Source of the DNA: a virus
Lineage: Duplodnaviria; Heunggongvirae; Uroviricota; Caudoviricetes
DNA: 11,839 nt
Reading direction: 5' to 3' (one strand)
IMG/VR virus record: IMGVR_UViG_2744054854_000008
Location: 1-11,839 of that record
Both the position numbers and the translations under genes were made by a program. This document shows, piece after piece, positions 1 through 11,839 of the stretch (its first letter is position 1; every line of letters starts with the position of its first letter). Under the pieces are notes generated by a model. The model made no database searches and was not told the DNA's origin. It saw only the letters and a program-made list of their open reading frames with translations.

Positions 1-585
1 CTATTCGATAATGGGTACTGTTGGCCATTCAATATCCGGTGCAGTTGTTGTATTAACACGGTTCAGCAACACCCGATATTTTTTCCAGGCTTCCAGCAAT
101 GAGGTTTCTTCCTCCGTTGCGATCTCCAGATCTACAGCATCCTGAAGTGGCGCTATATGCTCACTGGCTACCTGCATCAGGCTGTTTTTTGTTTCTTCCG
201 CCTCCCGGATCCGGAACAGTTTTTCTGCTTCCGTATCCTTCACCCAGGCTGTGCCGTTCCACTTCTGATATTCCCCTTCCGGCGATAACCAGGTGACATT
301 TTCCGGTAATGAGCCGAGTTCAGAAATAAATAACGCGTCGCCGGAAGCCACGTCATAAACCGTTTTACCCCGATGATCTTCAACGAGATGCCACGATGAC
401 TCATCACTGTTGAAAACAGCCACGAAGCCAGCTGGAATATCTGGCGGTGCAATGTCGGTACTGTTTGCTGGCAGACCTGTATGAGGCGGAATATATGCGT
501 CACCTTCACCAATAAATTCATTAGTTCCGGCCAGCAGATTATAAATTTTTATGGTCCGTGGTTGTTCACTCATTCTGAATGCCAT
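1..585 (-). CDS. tfa: Tail fiber assembly protein (lambda Tfa-like chaperone), 194 aa, complete
   Basis: Full ORF with ATG at 583-585 and stop at 1-3. Translation ([24 protein letters not shown]...EWPTVPIIE) is collinear with lambda Tfa as I recall it. Its start overlaps the stf stop (TAATG on the minus strand), the classic stf-tfa coupling. Confidence 0.9.
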
Positions 586-5954: not shown

Positions 5955-7340
5955 TTAACCAAGAATCAGACAACCATGTGCCGGCTTCACTGATGAAACA
6001 CCCCATGCCAGTCCAACTTCATAGCGCACCTGGCGATACTGACGATACAGTGCAATCTGGAACGTAATCCCTGAAATCGGGTCCGTAACATTCATTACAT
6101 CATCAGCATTATCGCCACCTTCCGGCATTGCCGGAGTACGGGATGCCAGCAGAAACGCGTTGCGATCAAACGCCATATTTGCCGTAAAGGCCCCAACAAC
6201 TGTGATGGCAGTATCATCGGCCAGATCCTGACGCAGTCCGGGCGCTGCAAGAGTAATCAGATTGCTGGTCGCTGCTGCCACAACATACTGATTCGGATCA
6301 CCAGCGAACGTAACAATCTGACCTGCAGAAATACTCCCCGAACCAGTATCAATGGAAATAAGAACATCGCCTTCTTTTTTCTCTCCATTCACGAGATAAC
6401 CAGTTGCAGCAACCTTTGGCGCTCGTTTCACACCTGCCGAACTGTGAATATTGAATCCCTCCAGACGCCCCAACACGCCCTCACGCAGTAGCTGTTCAGT
6501 GCCGGATTCATTCACTTTAAACAATACAGACTGTTTTCCGCGCAAATTAGCAATGGCAGTGGAGCCAAGCACCATCTGCAGATCGGTTGTCGGTGCGCCG
6601 TTATCCTCCAGAACCTGACGAGCCAGAGCAGCATCAGAAAGATCATCTTTAACACCAAACGGCGTTGTCCCTGCGGTTCCCACGGCGCGGGAAGCACCGA
6701 AATACAACGCACCAAGATCAGCCTCAACCTCGTTTGCAAGGGCGCGAAAAGCCTGCTTGAACTGATCAGCCAGAATGGTGTTGTAAGTCCCTGAAGGGCC
6801 AAGAGCCAGTTGTTCTTCACCATTCCATTTAACCGGTGCCATTTTGGATTTAGTAATTTTTACATCAACAGTGCCAATATTTTGATCACCGGTAAACATG
6901 CTGTTAATAGCAGTGCGGTTACCGGGCAAAACATCCGTCAACAGTTCATCAATTTCTGTCGGGATGAAGCCTGTCAGGGAGACATCAAAATCAGCATTGA
7001 TTAGGTCCGACAGCTCCATCCGCAACAGATCTTCATCCCAGCCAGCATTCATCGGCAGGCGATTATCTGCCAGGCGGTACGCCTTTTTCTGCTCATCCGT
7101 CAGGCCAGACAGAACAATGACCGGAACAGAATCCATTTTGAGCATTTCAGCCGCCATAACACGACCGTGACCCGCAATAATTTCGCCCTTTTCGTCAATC
7201 AGCACCGGATTAGTCCAGCCGAATTGCTTAATACTTTCTACCAGTTGTGCCACCTGCTCAGGGCTGTGCGTCCTGGCGTTGTGCGCATACGGTGACAATT
7301 CTTGTAATGGGCGATAGACTATCTTTAATTTCTCGCTCAT
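5955..7340 (-). CDS. ParB-like nuclease (ParB/Srx fold) N-terminal domain protein with an unassigned ~320-aa C-terminal region, 461 aa
   Basis: ATG at 7338-7340 with AAGG upstream. Residues ~8-95 (IVYRPLQELSPYAHNARTH...IIAGHGRVMAA...VPVIVLSGLTDEQKKAYRLADNRL) carry the ParB N-terminal domain pattern, with GHGR in place of the canonical GERR. The Gly/Ala/Thr/Val-rich C-terminal part has no motif I can assign. Followed by a terminator. Confidence 0.75.
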   Translation of the reverse strand: MSEKLKIVYRPLQELSPYAHNARTHSPEQVAQLVESIKQFGWTNPVLIDEKGEIIAGHGRVMAAEMLKMDSVPVIVLSGLTDEQKKAYRLADNRLPMNAGWDEDLLRMELSDLINADFDVSLTGFIPTEIDELLTDVLPGNRTAINSMFTGDQNIGTVDVKITKSKMAPVKWNGEEQLALGPSGTYNTILADQFKQAFRALANEVEADLGALYFGASRAVGTAGTTPFGVKDDLSDAALARQVLEDNGAPTTDLQMVLGSTAIANLRGKQSVLFKVNESGTEQLLREGVLGRLEGFNIHSSAGVKRAPKVAATGYLVNGEKKEGDVLISIDTGSGSISAGQIVTFAGDPNQYVVAAATSNLITLAAPGLRQDLADDTAITVVGAFTANMAFDRNAFLLASRTPAMPEGGDNADDVMNVTDPISGITFQIALYRQYRQVRYEVGLAWGVSSVKPAHGCLILG

Positions 7341-7477
7341 ACAGCCTTGCTTTATGAATAAAACGCCCCCCAGCAGCCAGTGCTACTGGGGACGGAGGGG
7401 TTGCTGGTAAAGTTAGGTATTGGATCAATGAGTGAGTCAACATAATATTAAACTCACAATTATAAATCAGCCATATA

Positions 7478-8935
7478 TTAGGAGCGCCAAAAAAAACCTG
7501 AAAACAATATAATAACAGGATAAATTTCAAGGCGACCAAGAATCATAGCTATGCACATTAAACATTTTGCAATGTCATTAAGCACTCCGAATGACGATGC
7601 AGTAGCCCCAAAACCTAATCCCATATTATTAATACATGCAGCCACTGTTGCAAATGATGTAAGAAAATCATATCCCATACCATTTAATACCAGTATAAAA
7701 AACACCGTGAAGAGAGTATAAAGAAAAAAGAAACTCCATACAGACCTCATTACACGATCTGTAACTATCTTCCCTCCTACATTTACACTCAACAACGCTC
7801 TGGGATGAGAAAGCTGATTTATCTCGTGTTTGCTTTGTTTGAAAAGTATAAGAAATCGAAGTGACTTAATTCCACCACAAGTTGAACCTATACATCCCCC
7901 AAAGAAACTTGACAACAGCAAAAACACTATCGTGTGCGTGGGCCAACTTGCATAATCCTGCGTAGCTAAACCATTATCAGTGAGCATGGAACTGGCAAGA
8001 AAAAACGAATGAATAAAACTTCCATGCAAGTCATACATACCTATATGCCAGACCTGGAAAGAGGTAACAATGATCACCCCTAAGGCTATTAACAGAAAGA
8101 AACGAAGTTCAATATCTCTGATTAAAGGTTTTATCGTTTTCCTGCTAATAACAATATACCAAAGAGTGAAGTTGAAAGCCGATAGCAGGGAAAAAGAACC
8201 AGCCACCAGCTCAACCAAATAGTTATTAAAATATCCGATACTCTCGCTATGAGTTGAGAAACCACCAAGCGAAACTGTGGAAATCCCGTGACAAATAGCA
8301 TCAAACAAAGGCATTCCTGCAAGTCTATAACAGACAATACAAGCAATACCTAATAAAGAATAAGTTATCCACAGTGTCCGTGACGTATCGGCCAGGCGGG
8401 GAGTGAGTTTGTCATCCTTAAATGGCCCCGGCATTTCTGACTGATAAAGCTTTGCACCACCAATACCCAATAATGGCAATACAGCAACCGCCAGAACAAT
8501 AACTCCTAAACCACCTATAAAATTTAACTGTGACCGATAGTACAAATATGCCCGAGGTAATGAACTAACATCATCAATTACAGTTGCTCCTGTTGTTGTT
8601 ATTCCAGAAACCCCTTCAAACAGAGCATCAATGAACGTTAAATTAAGTTCTGAGTCAATCCATAAAGGGAATGCACTAATAACAGAAAACAAAATCCAAA
8701 ACATTACAATTATAATAAACCCATCACGGGTACGTAATTGAATGCCAGATTTCTTAGTTGTATACCACGCTCCGCCACCAATGCAAAAAAATATAACGAA
8801 AGTTATAAAGAAAACGAACAGGCTTTTTTCTTTATAAAACAATGCTACAACCATTGGTGGCAACATTGAAAGACTATAGAGCCAAACCAGGAACCCACAC
8901 ATATGAGTAACAACTCTTACATGAGATGTATTCAT
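7478..8935 (-). CDS. trkG: TrkH/TrkG-family K+ uptake transporter (Rac-prophage TrkG-like), about 485 aa
   Basis: Multi-pass membrane protein. N-terminus MNTSHVRVVTHMCGFLVWLYSLSMLPP is as I recall TrkG, and the reiterated pore-loop GG(L/F)G-type motifs fit the TrkH family. Coding DNA is visibly AT-rich compared with its flanks. Start taken as the ATG at 8933-8935; an in-frame TTG at 8951-8953 with AGGTGG 6 nt upstream is an alternative (491 aa). Confidence 0.9.
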   Translation of the reverse strand: MNTSHVRVVTHMCGFLVWLYSLSMLPPMVVALFYKEKSLFVFFITFVIFFCIGGGAWYTTKKSGIQLRTRDGFIIIVMFWILFSVISAFPLWIDSELNLTFIDALFEGVSGITTTGATVIDDVSSLPRAYLYYRSQLNFIGGLGVIVLAVAVLPLLGIGGAKLYQSEMPGPFKDDKLTPRLADTSRTLWITYSLLGIACIVCYRLAGMPLFDAICHGISTVSLGGFSTHSESIGYFNNYLVELVAGSFSLLSAFNFTLWYIVISRKTIKPLIRDIELRFFLLIALGVIIVTSFQVWHIGMYDLHGSFIHSFFLASSMLTDNGLATQDYASWPTHTIVFLLLSSFFGGCIGSTCGGIKSLRFLILFKQSKHEINQLSHPRALLSVNVGGKIVTDRVMRSVWSFFFLYTLFTVFFILVLNGMGYDFLTSFATVAACINNMGLGFGATASSFGVLNDIAKCLMCIAMILGRLEIYPVIILFSGFFWRS

Positions 8936-8939
8936 ATCT

Positions 8940-9010
8940 AAATATTCTTTCAATTATAACCACCTTGCTGCAATATTATGATTATACTGTATAAAATTTA
9001 ACTCCTCTTA
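8940..9010 (-). promoter_or_regulatory. Candidate trkG promoter in an AT-rich intergenic region
   Basis: Two minus-strand TATAAT hexamers (plus attata at 8953-8958 and 8981-8986) in a 137-bp AT-rich spacer between the Rz stop and trkG. Neither has a good -35 element, so this is weakly supported. Confidence 0.2.
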
Positions 9011-9072
9011 GATCTTACTTCACTGTTCCTTATGAAACAATCATCAAAATGAATCATATTGTAGTTAAGATT

Positions 9073-9363
9073 TTACTTTAAACACTGCTCGGTTATGTAT
9101 TGCTGAGCACCTTCAAGTTGGGCCTGCATCATTACCAGTCGTTCCCGGAGGGTGAAATAATCCCGTTCAGCGGTGTCTGCCAGTCGGGGGGAGGCTGCAT
9201 TATCCACGCCGGAGGCGGTGGTGGCTTCACGCACTGACTGACAGACTGCTTTGATGTGCAACCGACGACGACCAGCGGCAACATCATCACGCAGAACATC
9301 ATTTTCAGCTTTCGCATCAGCTAACTCCTTCGTGTATTTTGCATCGAGCGCAGCAACATCACG
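9073..9363 (-). pseudogene. rzpR: N-terminally truncated Rz (i-spanin) remnant, C-terminal ~97 codons
   Basis: Hand translation gives RDVAALDAKYTKELADAKAENDVLRDDVAAGRRRLHIKAVCQSVREATTASGVDNAASPRLADTAERDYFTLRERL..., collinear with the lambda Rz C-terminal two thirds. Similarity stops abruptly upstream of codon R at 9361-9363; the signal-anchor N-terminus and a start codon are missing. Confidence 0.7.
9132..9317 (-). CDS. rzoR: Rz1-type o-spanin outer membrane lipoprotein, 61 aa, embedded in the +1 frame of the Rz remnant
   Basis: ATG at 9315-9317. MRKLKMMFCVMMLPLVVVGCTSKQ... has a lipobox (VVGC), and the Pro-rich mature part (KPPPPPAWIMQPPPDWQ) matches lambda Rz1 nearly residue for residue. 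Confidence 0.8.
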   Translation of the reverse strand: MRKLKMMFCVMMLPLVVVGCTSKQSVSQCVKPPPPPAWIMQPPPDWQTPLNGIISPSGNDW

Positions 9364-9422
9364 CGGACTTGTGCAAGTTGCCAGGAGGATCTGGAGCTTA
9401 TCAGTAAACAGAGAGGTTCGAA

Positions 9423-9830
9423 GTGAGCGAAATTAACTCTCAGGCACTGCGTGAAGCGGCAGAGAAAGCCGGTGAAGATAAGTGGCAGGCTAAAAAAATA
9501 AATGGTGATTTTTTCGTTATTCGTCACGGTAGTTATACAAGACAGCATGGCTACACATCGTATCAACCCATTGCGGAGATTGATTGTAAGCCAGTCCGGG
9601 ATTTTGTTGCCAAGGCTAATCCGGCTACCGTGCTGGAATTACTGGATGAACTGGAAGCAGCAAAAAAGCGCATTGCAGAACTGGAAGCGCGGGAAATACT
9701 GCTCCCGGAACGTAGCAGCATGCTTCATCGAACAGATTTTCACGATGATTACCAAACGGTAATGGCATACAAAGTTTCTGAAGTCATCGATGCAATCCGC
9801 GCTACTGGCATTCGCATCAAAGGAGAGTGA
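9423..9830 (+). CDS. Phage Ead/Ea22-like family protein (function unknown), 135 aa
   Basis: GTG start at 9423 with GAGAGG upstream; stop TGA at 9828-9830. Motifs QALREAAEKA and ANPATVLELLDELEAAKKRIAELE are what I associate with Ead/Ea22-like proteins of lambdoid prophages. The family assignment is from memory. Confidence 0.55.
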   Translation: MSEINSQALREAAEKAGEDKWQAKKINGDFFVIRHGSYTRQHGYTSYQPIAEIDCKPVRDFVAKANPATVLELLDELEAAKKRIAELEAREILLPERSSMLHRTDFHDDYQTVMAYKVSEVIDAIRATGIRIKGE

Positions 9831-9831
9831 G

Positions 9832-10587
9832 ATGATTCACTACCACGGTGGGCCTATTACTCCTGATACGTGCGCAATGAGAGCATGGAAAGGGCGACAT
9901 GCGTTTATCAGTTTTGCGCATTCAGGCCAGATCAATCTCGCGGCTGAATACTGTCAGTCGTTCGCGCTGGACAACGGTGCATTCACCGCCTGGAAAGCAG
10001 CTGGCAAAAACAAAATCGACTGGAGCGATTACTACGAGTTTGTTGCTCGCTGGAAGAATCACCCAGGATTCGATTTTGCCATTATCCCGGATATTATTGA
10101 TGGCGGAGAGGAGGAAAATGATGCGCTTCTGAATGAGTGGCCTCACGGAAAACTAGCTGGCGTTCCAGTGTGGCACATGAATGAAAGTGACGCGCGATTT
10201 ATTCATTTGTGCAATGAGTTTCCGCGAGTGGCTATCGGTAGTTGTGGCGACTATGACGTAAAGCGCCCAACTCTTGCGGTAGCCAGAATGAAAGACCTGA
10301 TTCGTCACATTGTTGATGGGCATGGTCAGCCGGTTACGAAACTACATGGATTGCGCATGTTAAATCCGCTGATATTCACAAAATTACCCTTAGCCAGCGC
10401 AGATAGTACGAACGTCGCTCGAAACATCGGTATTGATAAAGCCTGGTCTGGGGCTTATGCACCTGCAAGTAAAGAGACACGCGCAGCATTAATGGTAGAA
10501 CGGATTGAGGCACACAATAGCCCTGGTTCTCTTGCGTATTGTGAACAACGCGACCGCTTTGAAATGCAATTGCAACTAGCAGTTTAA
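9832..10587 (+). CDS. Hypothetical protein with TGT-like (tRNA-guanine transglycosylase fold) motifs; candidate DpdA-type 7-deazaguanine transglycosylase, 251 aa
   Basis: ATG at 9832 with AGGAG 6 nt upstream, 1 nt after the upstream stop; the track's start at 9790 is an upstream in-frame ATG. Motifs in TGT order: FALDNGAF (cf. TGT LTDSGGFQ), GFDFAIIPDI (cf. GSDIVMIFDE), HLCNEFPRVAIGSCG (cf. HVCPQIPADKPRYLMGVG), ADSTNVARN (cf. FDCVMPTRNARN, nucleophile Asp). No CxCxxC...H zinc motif. The gene call is solid; the functional call is a hypothesis. Confidence 0.6.
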   Translation: MIHYHGGPITPDTCAMRAWKGRHAFISFAHSGQINLAAEYCQSFALDNGAFTAWKAAGKNKIDWSDYYEFVARWKNHPGFDFAIIPDIIDGGEEENDALLNEWPHGKLAGVPVWHMNESDARFIHLCNEFPRVAIGSCGDYDVKRPTLAVARMKDLIRHIVDGHGQPVTKLHGLRMLNPLIFTKLPLASADSTNVARNIGIDKAWSGAYAPASKETRAALMVERIEAHNSPGSLAYCEQRDRFEMQLQLAV

Positions 10588-10597
10588 GGACTAACAA

Positions 10598-11839
10598 ATG
10601 ACCACTATTACCAAAGAACGTATTGAATTGTTCATTAAAAATCCGCTTGAAAACGGGCTTACTCGTGGCGAACAAATGGAACTGGCACGAATTGCACTGG
10701 CATCACTGGAACGCGAACTGATTCGCCACGAGCATGCCAAATGGTCTGACTCCACATTTGGCTGCGTTGGCCCCATTGGTCCACTGAAACACCTCTCAAA
10801 AGAGGCTCTGGAAGCCGCAGCCGAACCAGACGATCTCAGCGAGTGGGCTGATATGCATTTCCTGTTGTGGGATGCACAGCGCCGTGCTGGCATCAGCGAT
10901 GCTGAAATTACCGCTGCTATGGAAGATAAATTGAAGATCAACATGGAGCGCCAGTGGCCTGAACCAAAAGATGGTGAGCCTCGCTTGCACATTAAAGAAC
11001 CCGGCAACTCTCCGGTAATTCCGGATGGTTTATCCACGGTATGCGCTGAGGCTTATCAGGTTGTAGGAGTTATGGCAGATGCGCTTGGTGTATTCGGTGA
11101 TGCAGCAGTACAGAAAGTTCTGGATAACCTGTCACAGCAAAAACTTGTTCACAGAGATGTGCTGCCGTTCTCGCTTCCGGTGACTCCGGATGGTTGGATA
11201 AGCTGTAGTGAGCGAATGCCGAAAGAGGCAATAGCTGAAGGCCATATAACAACAAACCCTGTCGCTGCCACTCGCGCAGCAAAATCAGAGGTAAGGAGAT
11301 CAAGACTTACGGCTGACGAATACCTGAAAATTTATCAAGCAGCAGAATCATCACCATGTTGGCTCAGACTTGCAATGGAACTGGCTGTTGTTACCGGGCA
11401 GCGAGTTGGTGATTTATGCGAAATGAAGTGGTCTGATATCGTAGATGGATATCTTTATGTCGAGCAAAGCAAAACAGGCGTAAAAATTGCCATCCCAACA
11501 ACATTGCATGTTGATGCTCTCGGGATATCAATGAAGGAAACACTTGATAAATGCAAAAAGATTCTTGGCGGAGAAACCATAATTGCATCTACTCGTCGTG
11601 AACCGCTTTCATCCGGCACAGTATCAAGGTATTTTATGCGCGCACGAAAAGCATCAGGTCTCTCCTTCGAAGGGGATCCGCCAACCTTTCACGAGTTGCG
11701 CAGTTTGTCTGCAAGACTCTATGAGAAGCAGATAAGCGATAAATTTGCTCAACATCTTCTCGGGCATAAGTCGGACACCATGGCATCACAGTATCGTGAT
11801 GACAGAGGCAGGGAGTGGGACAAAATTGAAATCAAATAA
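10598..11839 (+). CDS. Chimeric tyrosine recombinase: non-integrase N-terminal ~209 aa fused in frame to a lambda-type Int catalytic domain (~203 aa), 413 aa
   Basis: ATG at 10598 with TAAGGA 7 nt upstream; stop TAA at 11837-11839. From residue ~210 (EAIAEGHITTN...TGQRVGDL...FHELRSLSARLY...HLLGHKSDTMASQYRDDRGREWDKIEIK) it is near-identical to the lambda Int C-terminal catalytic domain, including the R...HxxR...H...Y residues. Residues 1-209 do not resemble the Int arm-binding or core-binding domains. Confidence 0.8.
   Translation: MTTITKERIELFIKNPLENGLTRGEQMELARIALASLERELIRHEHAKWSDSTFGCVGPIGPLKHLSKEALEAAAEPDDLSEWADMHFLLWDAQRRAGISDAEITAAMEDKLKINMERQWPEPKDGEPRLHIKEPGNSPVIPDGLSTVCAEAYQVVGVMADALGVFGDAAVQKVLDNLSQQKLVHRDVLPFSLPVTPDGWISCSERMPKEAIAEGHITTNPVAATRAAKSEVRRSRLTADEYLKIYQAAESSPCWLRLAMELAVVTGQRVGDLCEMKWSDIVDGYLYVEQSKTGVKIAIPTTLHVDALGISMKETLDKCKKILGGETIIASTRREPLSSGTVSRYFMRARKASGLSFEGDPPTFHELRSLSARLYEKQISDKFAQHLLGHKSDTMASQYRDDRGREWDKIEIK

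Follow-up and report, generated by a model that had tools for sequence, protein, structure and literature searches.

The truncated lysis region of this element is very probably the scar of one illegitimate deletion of ~15.2 kb inside a lambdoid prophage at att-lambda, which cut the i-spanin gene Rz and spared the o-spanin gene Rz1 by virtue of its position. The window, i.e. the whole stretch of 11,839 nucleotides that was analysed, carries a 3' remnant of Rz with a complete Rz1 nested in it, and directly across the break the 3' end of a TraR/DksA-family zinc-finger gene followed by an intact Ead/Ea22-like gene (Table 1).

The Rz frame is open from 9073 upward on the minus strand (...TCTSP-RDVAALDAKYTKELADAKAENDVLRDDVAAGRRRLHIKAV...EQCLK-stop), and the translation of 9073-9450(-) in this frame reads ...TCTSP/RDVAALDAKYTKELADAKAEND...EQCLK-stop. 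Alignment with lambda Rz, the full-length Rz of strain MIN9 and K-12 Rac places the exact start of homology at R59 (codon 9361-9363), with unrelated sequence further upstream; the preliminary description of this DNA, which had Rz similarity beginning abruptly at ~9363, was thus exact. The remnant is 100% identical to MIN9 Rz residues 59-154 by tblastn, and it matches Pfam PF03245 (Phage_lysis) with E = 1.2e-44 over profile positions 31-125 of 126 only. Gone are the transmembrane anchor (residues 1-24) and the first 34 periplasmic residues (25-58, with much of the first coiled coil, CC1), while the remaining CC1, CC2 and C152 are retained. The claimed loss of the start codon and transmembrane N-terminus holds as well: Rz residues 1-58 gave no significant tblastn match in the 29 kb comprising the element and its host flanks, which rules out an N-terminus hidden in another frame or elsewhere in that region, and the first ATG/GTG/TTG of the frame past the upstream stop is a TTG at 9261, from which the product would be a 62-aa cytoplasmic fragment. 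PGAP annotates the remnant as a pseudogene, 'lysis protein, missing N-terminus'. Rz is a type II inner-membrane protein in which a TMD of residues 1-24 anchors two periplasmic coiled coils, and spanin function requires both subunits and a membrane-anchored Rz, a defect in either blocking lysis (PMC5295617). Because the start codon, the TMD and this much of the periplasmic domain are absent, the remnant is dead and unable to yield an i-spanin.

Rz1 is complete, as the preliminary description had proposed, with its own ATG at 9315-9317 and the entire ORF lying within the Rz frame 9073-9363. The protein matches Pfam PF06085 (E = 2e-19), and its parts are a signal peptide (residues 1-19), the lipobox VVG-C20 (Cys codon 9258-9260), a penta-proline stretch and Cys29. 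Rz1 is an outer-membrane lipoprotein whose functional features (lipobox, Cys20, penta-proline, Cys29) were defined by Cahill et al. (PMC5295617); judged by its sequence, the copy in the window appears to have the signal peptide, lipobox, lipoylated Cys and proline-rich mature part of an o-spanin. It is 92% identical to lambda Rz1, with LVVVG-C20, PPPPP at 32-36 and C29 unchanged, and it differs from K-12 RzoR by a single residue, L8F, in the signal peptide. One nucleotide variant accounts for both Rz A81V and Rz1 L8F; since the full-length MIN9 Rz also has it, it is a natural allele of working cassettes. Rz1 could be translated if it were transcribed. RefSeq/PGAP leaves this intact ORF unannotated in NZ_AP021894 (L001 14183-14368, equivalent to window 9132-9317), where the Rz and TraR fragments are listed as pseudogenes; the equivalent ORF in other genomes is named rzoD or Rz1-family lipoprotein.

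The junction itself was resolved by a three-way comparison on the plus strand. The window reads ...CATCACGC-G-GAC-TTGTGC..., the Rz parent ...CATCACGC-T-GAC-GCATCT... and the TraR parent ...GGTTGTC-G-GAC-TTGTGC..., so that the break falls at 9363/9364 with C9364 as the one base common to both parents. At 9364-9368 the window and the TraR parent read CGGAC and the Rz parent CTGAC, a microhomology of 4 of 5. A join with essentially no homology (1-5 nt) points to illegitimate recombination rather than homologous exchange. The flank matches are not due to chance: identity to a full-length relative is 99.8% on the Rz side, and across the break the match is 100%.

Across the break, the TraR/DksA-family protein is 73 aa at full length, and the remnant is 100% identical to residues 54-73 of the MIN9 protein; at 20 aa it is too short for any HMM and was identified by this match to the full gene. 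Its stop overlaps the Ea22 start (GTGA), and the 59 bp from the break to the Ea22 GTG (9364-9422, with the GTG at 9423) are TraR codons and not spacer. The distance of ~60 bp between the Rz break and the Ea22-like gene given in the preliminary description therefore stands, while its statement that the junction abuts that gene does not: the junction adjoins the TraR/DksA 3' remnant. The Ea22-like protein is identical to WP_001289864.1 of the relatives. NCBIfam gave no match for the Rz fragment, Rz1, Ea22 or the TraR remnant, the first three of which were matched by Pfam. Two junction-spanning ORFs, 9251-9436 (+) and 9321-9566 (-), were taken as chance, being antisense to or out of frame with the remnants.

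Table 1. Features and junctions in the 11,839-nt window.
Feature	Position	Strand	Details
Junction J'/capsid fragment	5889/5912		~11.4 kb lost vs 2017.15.02CC
Junction capsid fragment/ynaK	6894/6920		~7.5 kb lost vs 2017.15.02CC
trkG	7478..8935	(-)	AT-rich moron immediately downstream of Rz/Rz1
Rz (i-spanin) 3' remnant	9073..9363	(-)	codons 59-154 + stop; no start codon
Rz1 (o-spanin), complete 61-aa ORF	9132..9317	(-)	+1 frame of Rz
Rz1 Shine-Dalgarno AAGGAG	9325..9330	(-)	7 nt before ATG; on the retained side of the junction; read from sequence
Deletion junction	9364..9368	(.)	three-way comparison and BLAST end-points
TraR/DksA-family zinc-finger gene, 3' remnant	9364..9426	(+)	codons 54-73 (RTCASCQEDLELISKQRGSK) + stop
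Ead/Ea22-like gene, intact, 135 aa	9423..9830	(+)	Pfam PF13935, E = 2.6e-17
Int-side junction	11224..11226		truncated dATP/dGTP pyrophosphohydrolase gene joined to Int residue 152; ~1.5 kb lost, 3-nt overlap

Strains MIN9 and QDFD216 reveal the parental arrangement, as both carry prophages at the same att-lambda site in which the early and lysis regions are intact. The gene order is int-xis-...-Ea22-TraR/DksA-...-exo-bet-gam-kil-...-S24 repressor (cI-like)-cro-like-ydaT-O-P, continuing from O-P through nin region-Q-porin-S-R-Rz/Rz1-trkG-ynaK'-...-terminase. The window matches MIN9 at 99.84% over 6920-9368 and at 100% over 9364-10210; in MIN9 and QDFD216 the two flanks lie in the same orientation with 15,158 bp between them, and this interval, which contains exo-bet-gam-kil, repressor/cro, O, P, nin, Q, porin, S and R, is absent from the window. 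Searches of the 29-kb locus by tblastn with the MIN9 R, S, Q, P, O, cro-like, cI-like, Kil, Gam, Bet, Exo and Xis proteins returned no significant match, in agreement with the earlier claim that everything from the early-left region through R had been deleted. Immunity or replication genes immediately outside the described features are likewise ruled out, since both the PGAP table and tblastn place the host genes ybhB/dgc and ybhC at its two ends.

The same relatives bear on whether the two flanks ever belonged to different phages. Recombination between Rac at ttcA and a lambda-like phage at att-lambda could place a left half that is 99.6% identical to the K-12 Rac rzpR-rzoR-trkG-ynaK stretch beside a right half and integrase that are lambda-like, but we regard this origin as highly improbable: three other strains have the Rz/Rz1-trkG-ynaK module in an att-lambda prophage, MIN9 and QDFD216 also have the TraR-Ea22-xis-int arm so that the parental configuration already existed in one element, and homology of just 1-5 nt at the join does not fit homologous exchange. 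The prophages of MIN9, QDFD216 and 2017.15.02CC are larger and have decayed less; they share the site and att core with the element and match its Ea22, TraR, int, Rz/Rz1, trkG and ynaK at 99-100%; that of 2017.15.02CC has the same tfa-stf-lom-J as well. Unlike the element, MIN9 and QDFD216 keep the 15.2-kb early/replication/lysis block, and 2017.15.02CC keeps the head and tail genes. These relatives have themselves decayed separately, the late region of MIN9 being truncated by IS1 and the early region of 2017.15.02CC having been lost in association with IS1.

When 8950-9900 was compared by megablast with 5,426 complete E. coli genomes (20,395 records), only 2 of the 20,395 records covered both sides of the junction, and both belong to a single strain, 2018-10-1CC (Thai Binh, Viet Nam); the remaining matches listed, among which the Rz-side matches do not figure, all stop at window 9364. 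An exact scan of metagenome contigs for the junction 31-mer (GCAGCAACATCACGCGGACTTGTGCAAGTTG) gave 0 matches. Between the window and strain 2018-10-1CC there are 8 scattered SNPs (2117, 2168, 4186, 5437, 6240, 7688, 7991 and 11384), none of them within 8950-9900, and the window is therefore a related, non-identical genome with the same four junctions. The junction is thus common to at least two slightly diverged genomes and not brand-new. These observations also bear on a chimeric join introduced by assembly or sequencing, which the presence of the junction in just two identical-length records of one strain might suggest; we consider it extremely unlikely, as the window has the same junction with 8 differences from that record and so is a separate sequence source, the join carries a clean microhomology signature, and proper att cores bound the element in a closed chromosome.

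The element lies between ybhB (the bioA-ybhB side, with a diguanylate cyclase gene) and ybhC, i.e. at att-lambda, and the 15-bp lambda att core GCTTTTTTATACTAA is present on both sides, 13,972 bp apart (L001 2992 and 16964); these cores and flanks identify it as a prophage at att-lambda and not Rac at ttcA. The other junctions came to light in comparisons of the window with MIN9, QDFD216 and 2017.15.02CC, the last of which has the full set of head and tail genes at this site. The J'/capsid' and capsid'/ynaK junctions each contain 22-25 nt of unmatched filler, and the latter join creates a 461-aa ParB_N::P22-coat fusion ORF (5955-7340, minus strand). The int-side deletion took xis and the first 151 Int residues, for which tblastn found no significant match in the element, and left a fused ORF of 413 aa (10598-11839, +) that consists of a DUF550 fragment, a dATP/dGTP pyrophosphohydrolase domain and the C-terminal catalytic half of Int (152-356), the last of these 98.5% identical to the att-lambda integrase of the relatives. 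A complete int with xis is accordingly lacking. Two of the three further junctions were tested for distribution, and the J'/capsid/ynaK arrangement was found only in strain 2018-10-1CC. The four deletions total ~35.6 kb and reduce an ancestor of ~49.5 kb to 14 kb. The conclusion of the preliminary description that the element cannot be an inducible prophage is supported, and with three further deletions of most head and tail genes, xis and Int 1-151 its non-inducibility is over-determined.

Two further features of the element were recorded. Rfam IS009 (RF02111) matches at full length inside tfa, at window 44-242 (-), with 225 bits against a gathering score of 117. A sensor diguanylate cyclase gene (L001 3647-4978) lies outside the window and inside the att-bounded element, between the att core and tfa, in the position of the lambda b region; since the full-length relative 2017.15.02CC also has it, it is likely prophage cargo.

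Comparison with lambda underlines which parts of the lysis region survive. As in lambda, Rz1 is nested in the +1 frame of Rz, with identical lipobox, P5 stretch and Cys29, and the retained part of Rz has ~91-92% DNA identity to lambda-group phages (Lambda_2E9, 434). Unlike lambda, the element has lost Rz 1-58 with the start codon and has no upstream S, R, Q or pR'; and whereas lambda has bor after Rz, here trkG follows. The DLP12 prophage, which in the K-12 annotation has a complete essD-rrrD-rzpD followed by borD and not trkG, also resembles the window: over its 5' two-thirds, where most of Rz1 lies, the retained Rz shows 99.5% identity to rzpD in many genomes. The coding sequences of rzoD and rzoR have been treated as nearly identical (PMC5318159).

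K-12 Rac is a close known counterpart in the Rz/Rz1-trkG-ynaK module, with 99.56% DNA identity over 2,282 nt from Rz' through ynaK (window 7087-9368), an N-terminally truncated Rz, an intact Rz1/RzoR and an adjoining trkG. The lesion in rzpR is a different one, however. Alignment shows that the Rac break lies at Rz codon 8 (L003 13201) and is fused to ydaW, whereas here it lies at codon 59 and abuts TraR/DksA'; a shared lesion is thereby ruled out, and the two breaks are independent events. Rac moreover occupies ttcA and has int, recET and racR of its own, unlike the element at att-lambda, from which all early genes have been lost. In K-12 Rac (L003 13184-13645), Rz codons 8-154 form one open frame with the transmembrane segment included; the annotated rzpR pseudogene begins only at an internal ATG, and in another frame ydaW overlaps the N-terminal region of Rz.

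Together with its upstream region (7478-9072), trkG is an AT-rich island with a GC of 0.37-0.39 vs ~0.5 elsewhere. It adjoins this Rz 3' end in ~1,520 complete E. coli genomes, in att-lambda prophages and in Rac at ttcA alike; across complete genomes, 718 have a complete Rz with rrrD upstream, others have a complete Rz with a different lysozyme, and the K-12-type genomes start at codon 8. From these arrangements trkG looks like a moron that a phage family carries directly behind its lysis cassette, rather than something peculiar to Rac, and it is probably the reason why this end of the lysis cassette was retained.

Rz1 survives here without the genes that normally accompany it. No S, R or Q homologue was detected by tblastn, while the relatives have S, R and Q immediately upstream of Rz/Rz1. 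A consensus scan of the minus strand upstream of Rz1 (9300-11839) revealed no sigma-70-like site, and the sole minus-strand promoter-like site in the two scanned stretches (8850-11839) lies downstream of Rz1 at 9082-9053, well positioned to serve trkG. Neither the promoter nor the terminator scans exceeded shuffle expectation, and no candidate driver of Rz1 emerged from them, although the missing consensus promoter argues only weakly for its silence. With pR'/Q-dependent late transcription and the Rz partner lost, Rz1 most likely goes untranscribed or, should the lipoprotein be made, sits inert in the outer membrane, i.e. it is a silent or inert passenger beside the trkG moron.

The intactness of Rz1 could also reflect selection, if it had been domesticated as an outer-membrane lipoprotein with an envelope-stress role or as a partner in trans, or a decoy, for Rz from lambdoid phages that are co-resident or superinfecting. 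We think this very improbable. Its ORF, Shine-Dalgarno sequence, signal peptide, lipobox, P5 stretch and Cys29 are all intact, yet nothing in it differs from the Rz1 copies in complete lysis cassettes, and no selection is needed for its survival, since the break lies 47 nt ahead of its ATG and only one strain lineage carries the junction. K-12 Rac, too, has an independent deletion that stops within Rz and leaves rzoR whole, but two end-points are too few to reveal avoidance of Rz1, and both can be explained by the keeping of the neighbouring trkG. Moreover, no function is known for an o-spanin that lacks its i-spanin (PMC5295617), and the scan found no promoter-like site upstream. The domestication reading can further draw on a report that eugenol induces RzoR in E. 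coli, which is one MALDI-TOF study with assignment by mass match only (PMC6115441); the Rac of that strain is likewise without an intact Rz, which makes this study the only, if weak, hint against silence, in that partnerless Rz1 copies may sometimes be expressed (PMC6115441). Our search of the literature on rzoR turned up no functional study, just this mass-match MALDI mention and the remark on the near-identity of rzoD and rzoR. The more specific proposal that Rz1 is expressed and co-opted, pairing with or titrating the near-identical Rz of resident or incoming lambdoid phages and so altering lysis, or else acting in envelope stress, is very unlikely; if true, it would account for the fact that independent deletions, in this element and in K-12 Rac, end before reaching Rz1.

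The preferred course of events, loss by one deletion with Rz1 spared by position, would have begun with a lambdoid prophage at att-lambda (ybhB/ybhC) whose late half was Rac-like, Rz/Rz1-trkG-ynaK...J-lom-stf-tfa. A single microhomology-level deletion would then have run from inside the TraR/DksA gene of the early left operon to Rz codon 58, removing the genes for recombination, immunity, replication, antitermination, holin and endolysin; several deletions nested one after another would have left an identical single scar. Rz1 would be whole only because the break fell ahead of its ATG and the event is too young for decay by point mutation. Selection may have favoured the loss of lethal and inducible functions while the morons (trkG, lom and the flanking diguanylate cyclase) were kept.

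Together, these results describe prophage decay and domestication of a well-known kind and not a new system. They fix the exact scar (9363/9364) and the size (15,158 bp) of one deletion, the significance of which is mainly one of annotation. The 14-kb att-lambda island is the remnant of a ~49.5-kb Rac-like/lambda-like hybrid prophage that has kept its trkG and lom morons, and it provides a second, independent case in which truncation of Rz beside trkG has spared Rz1.
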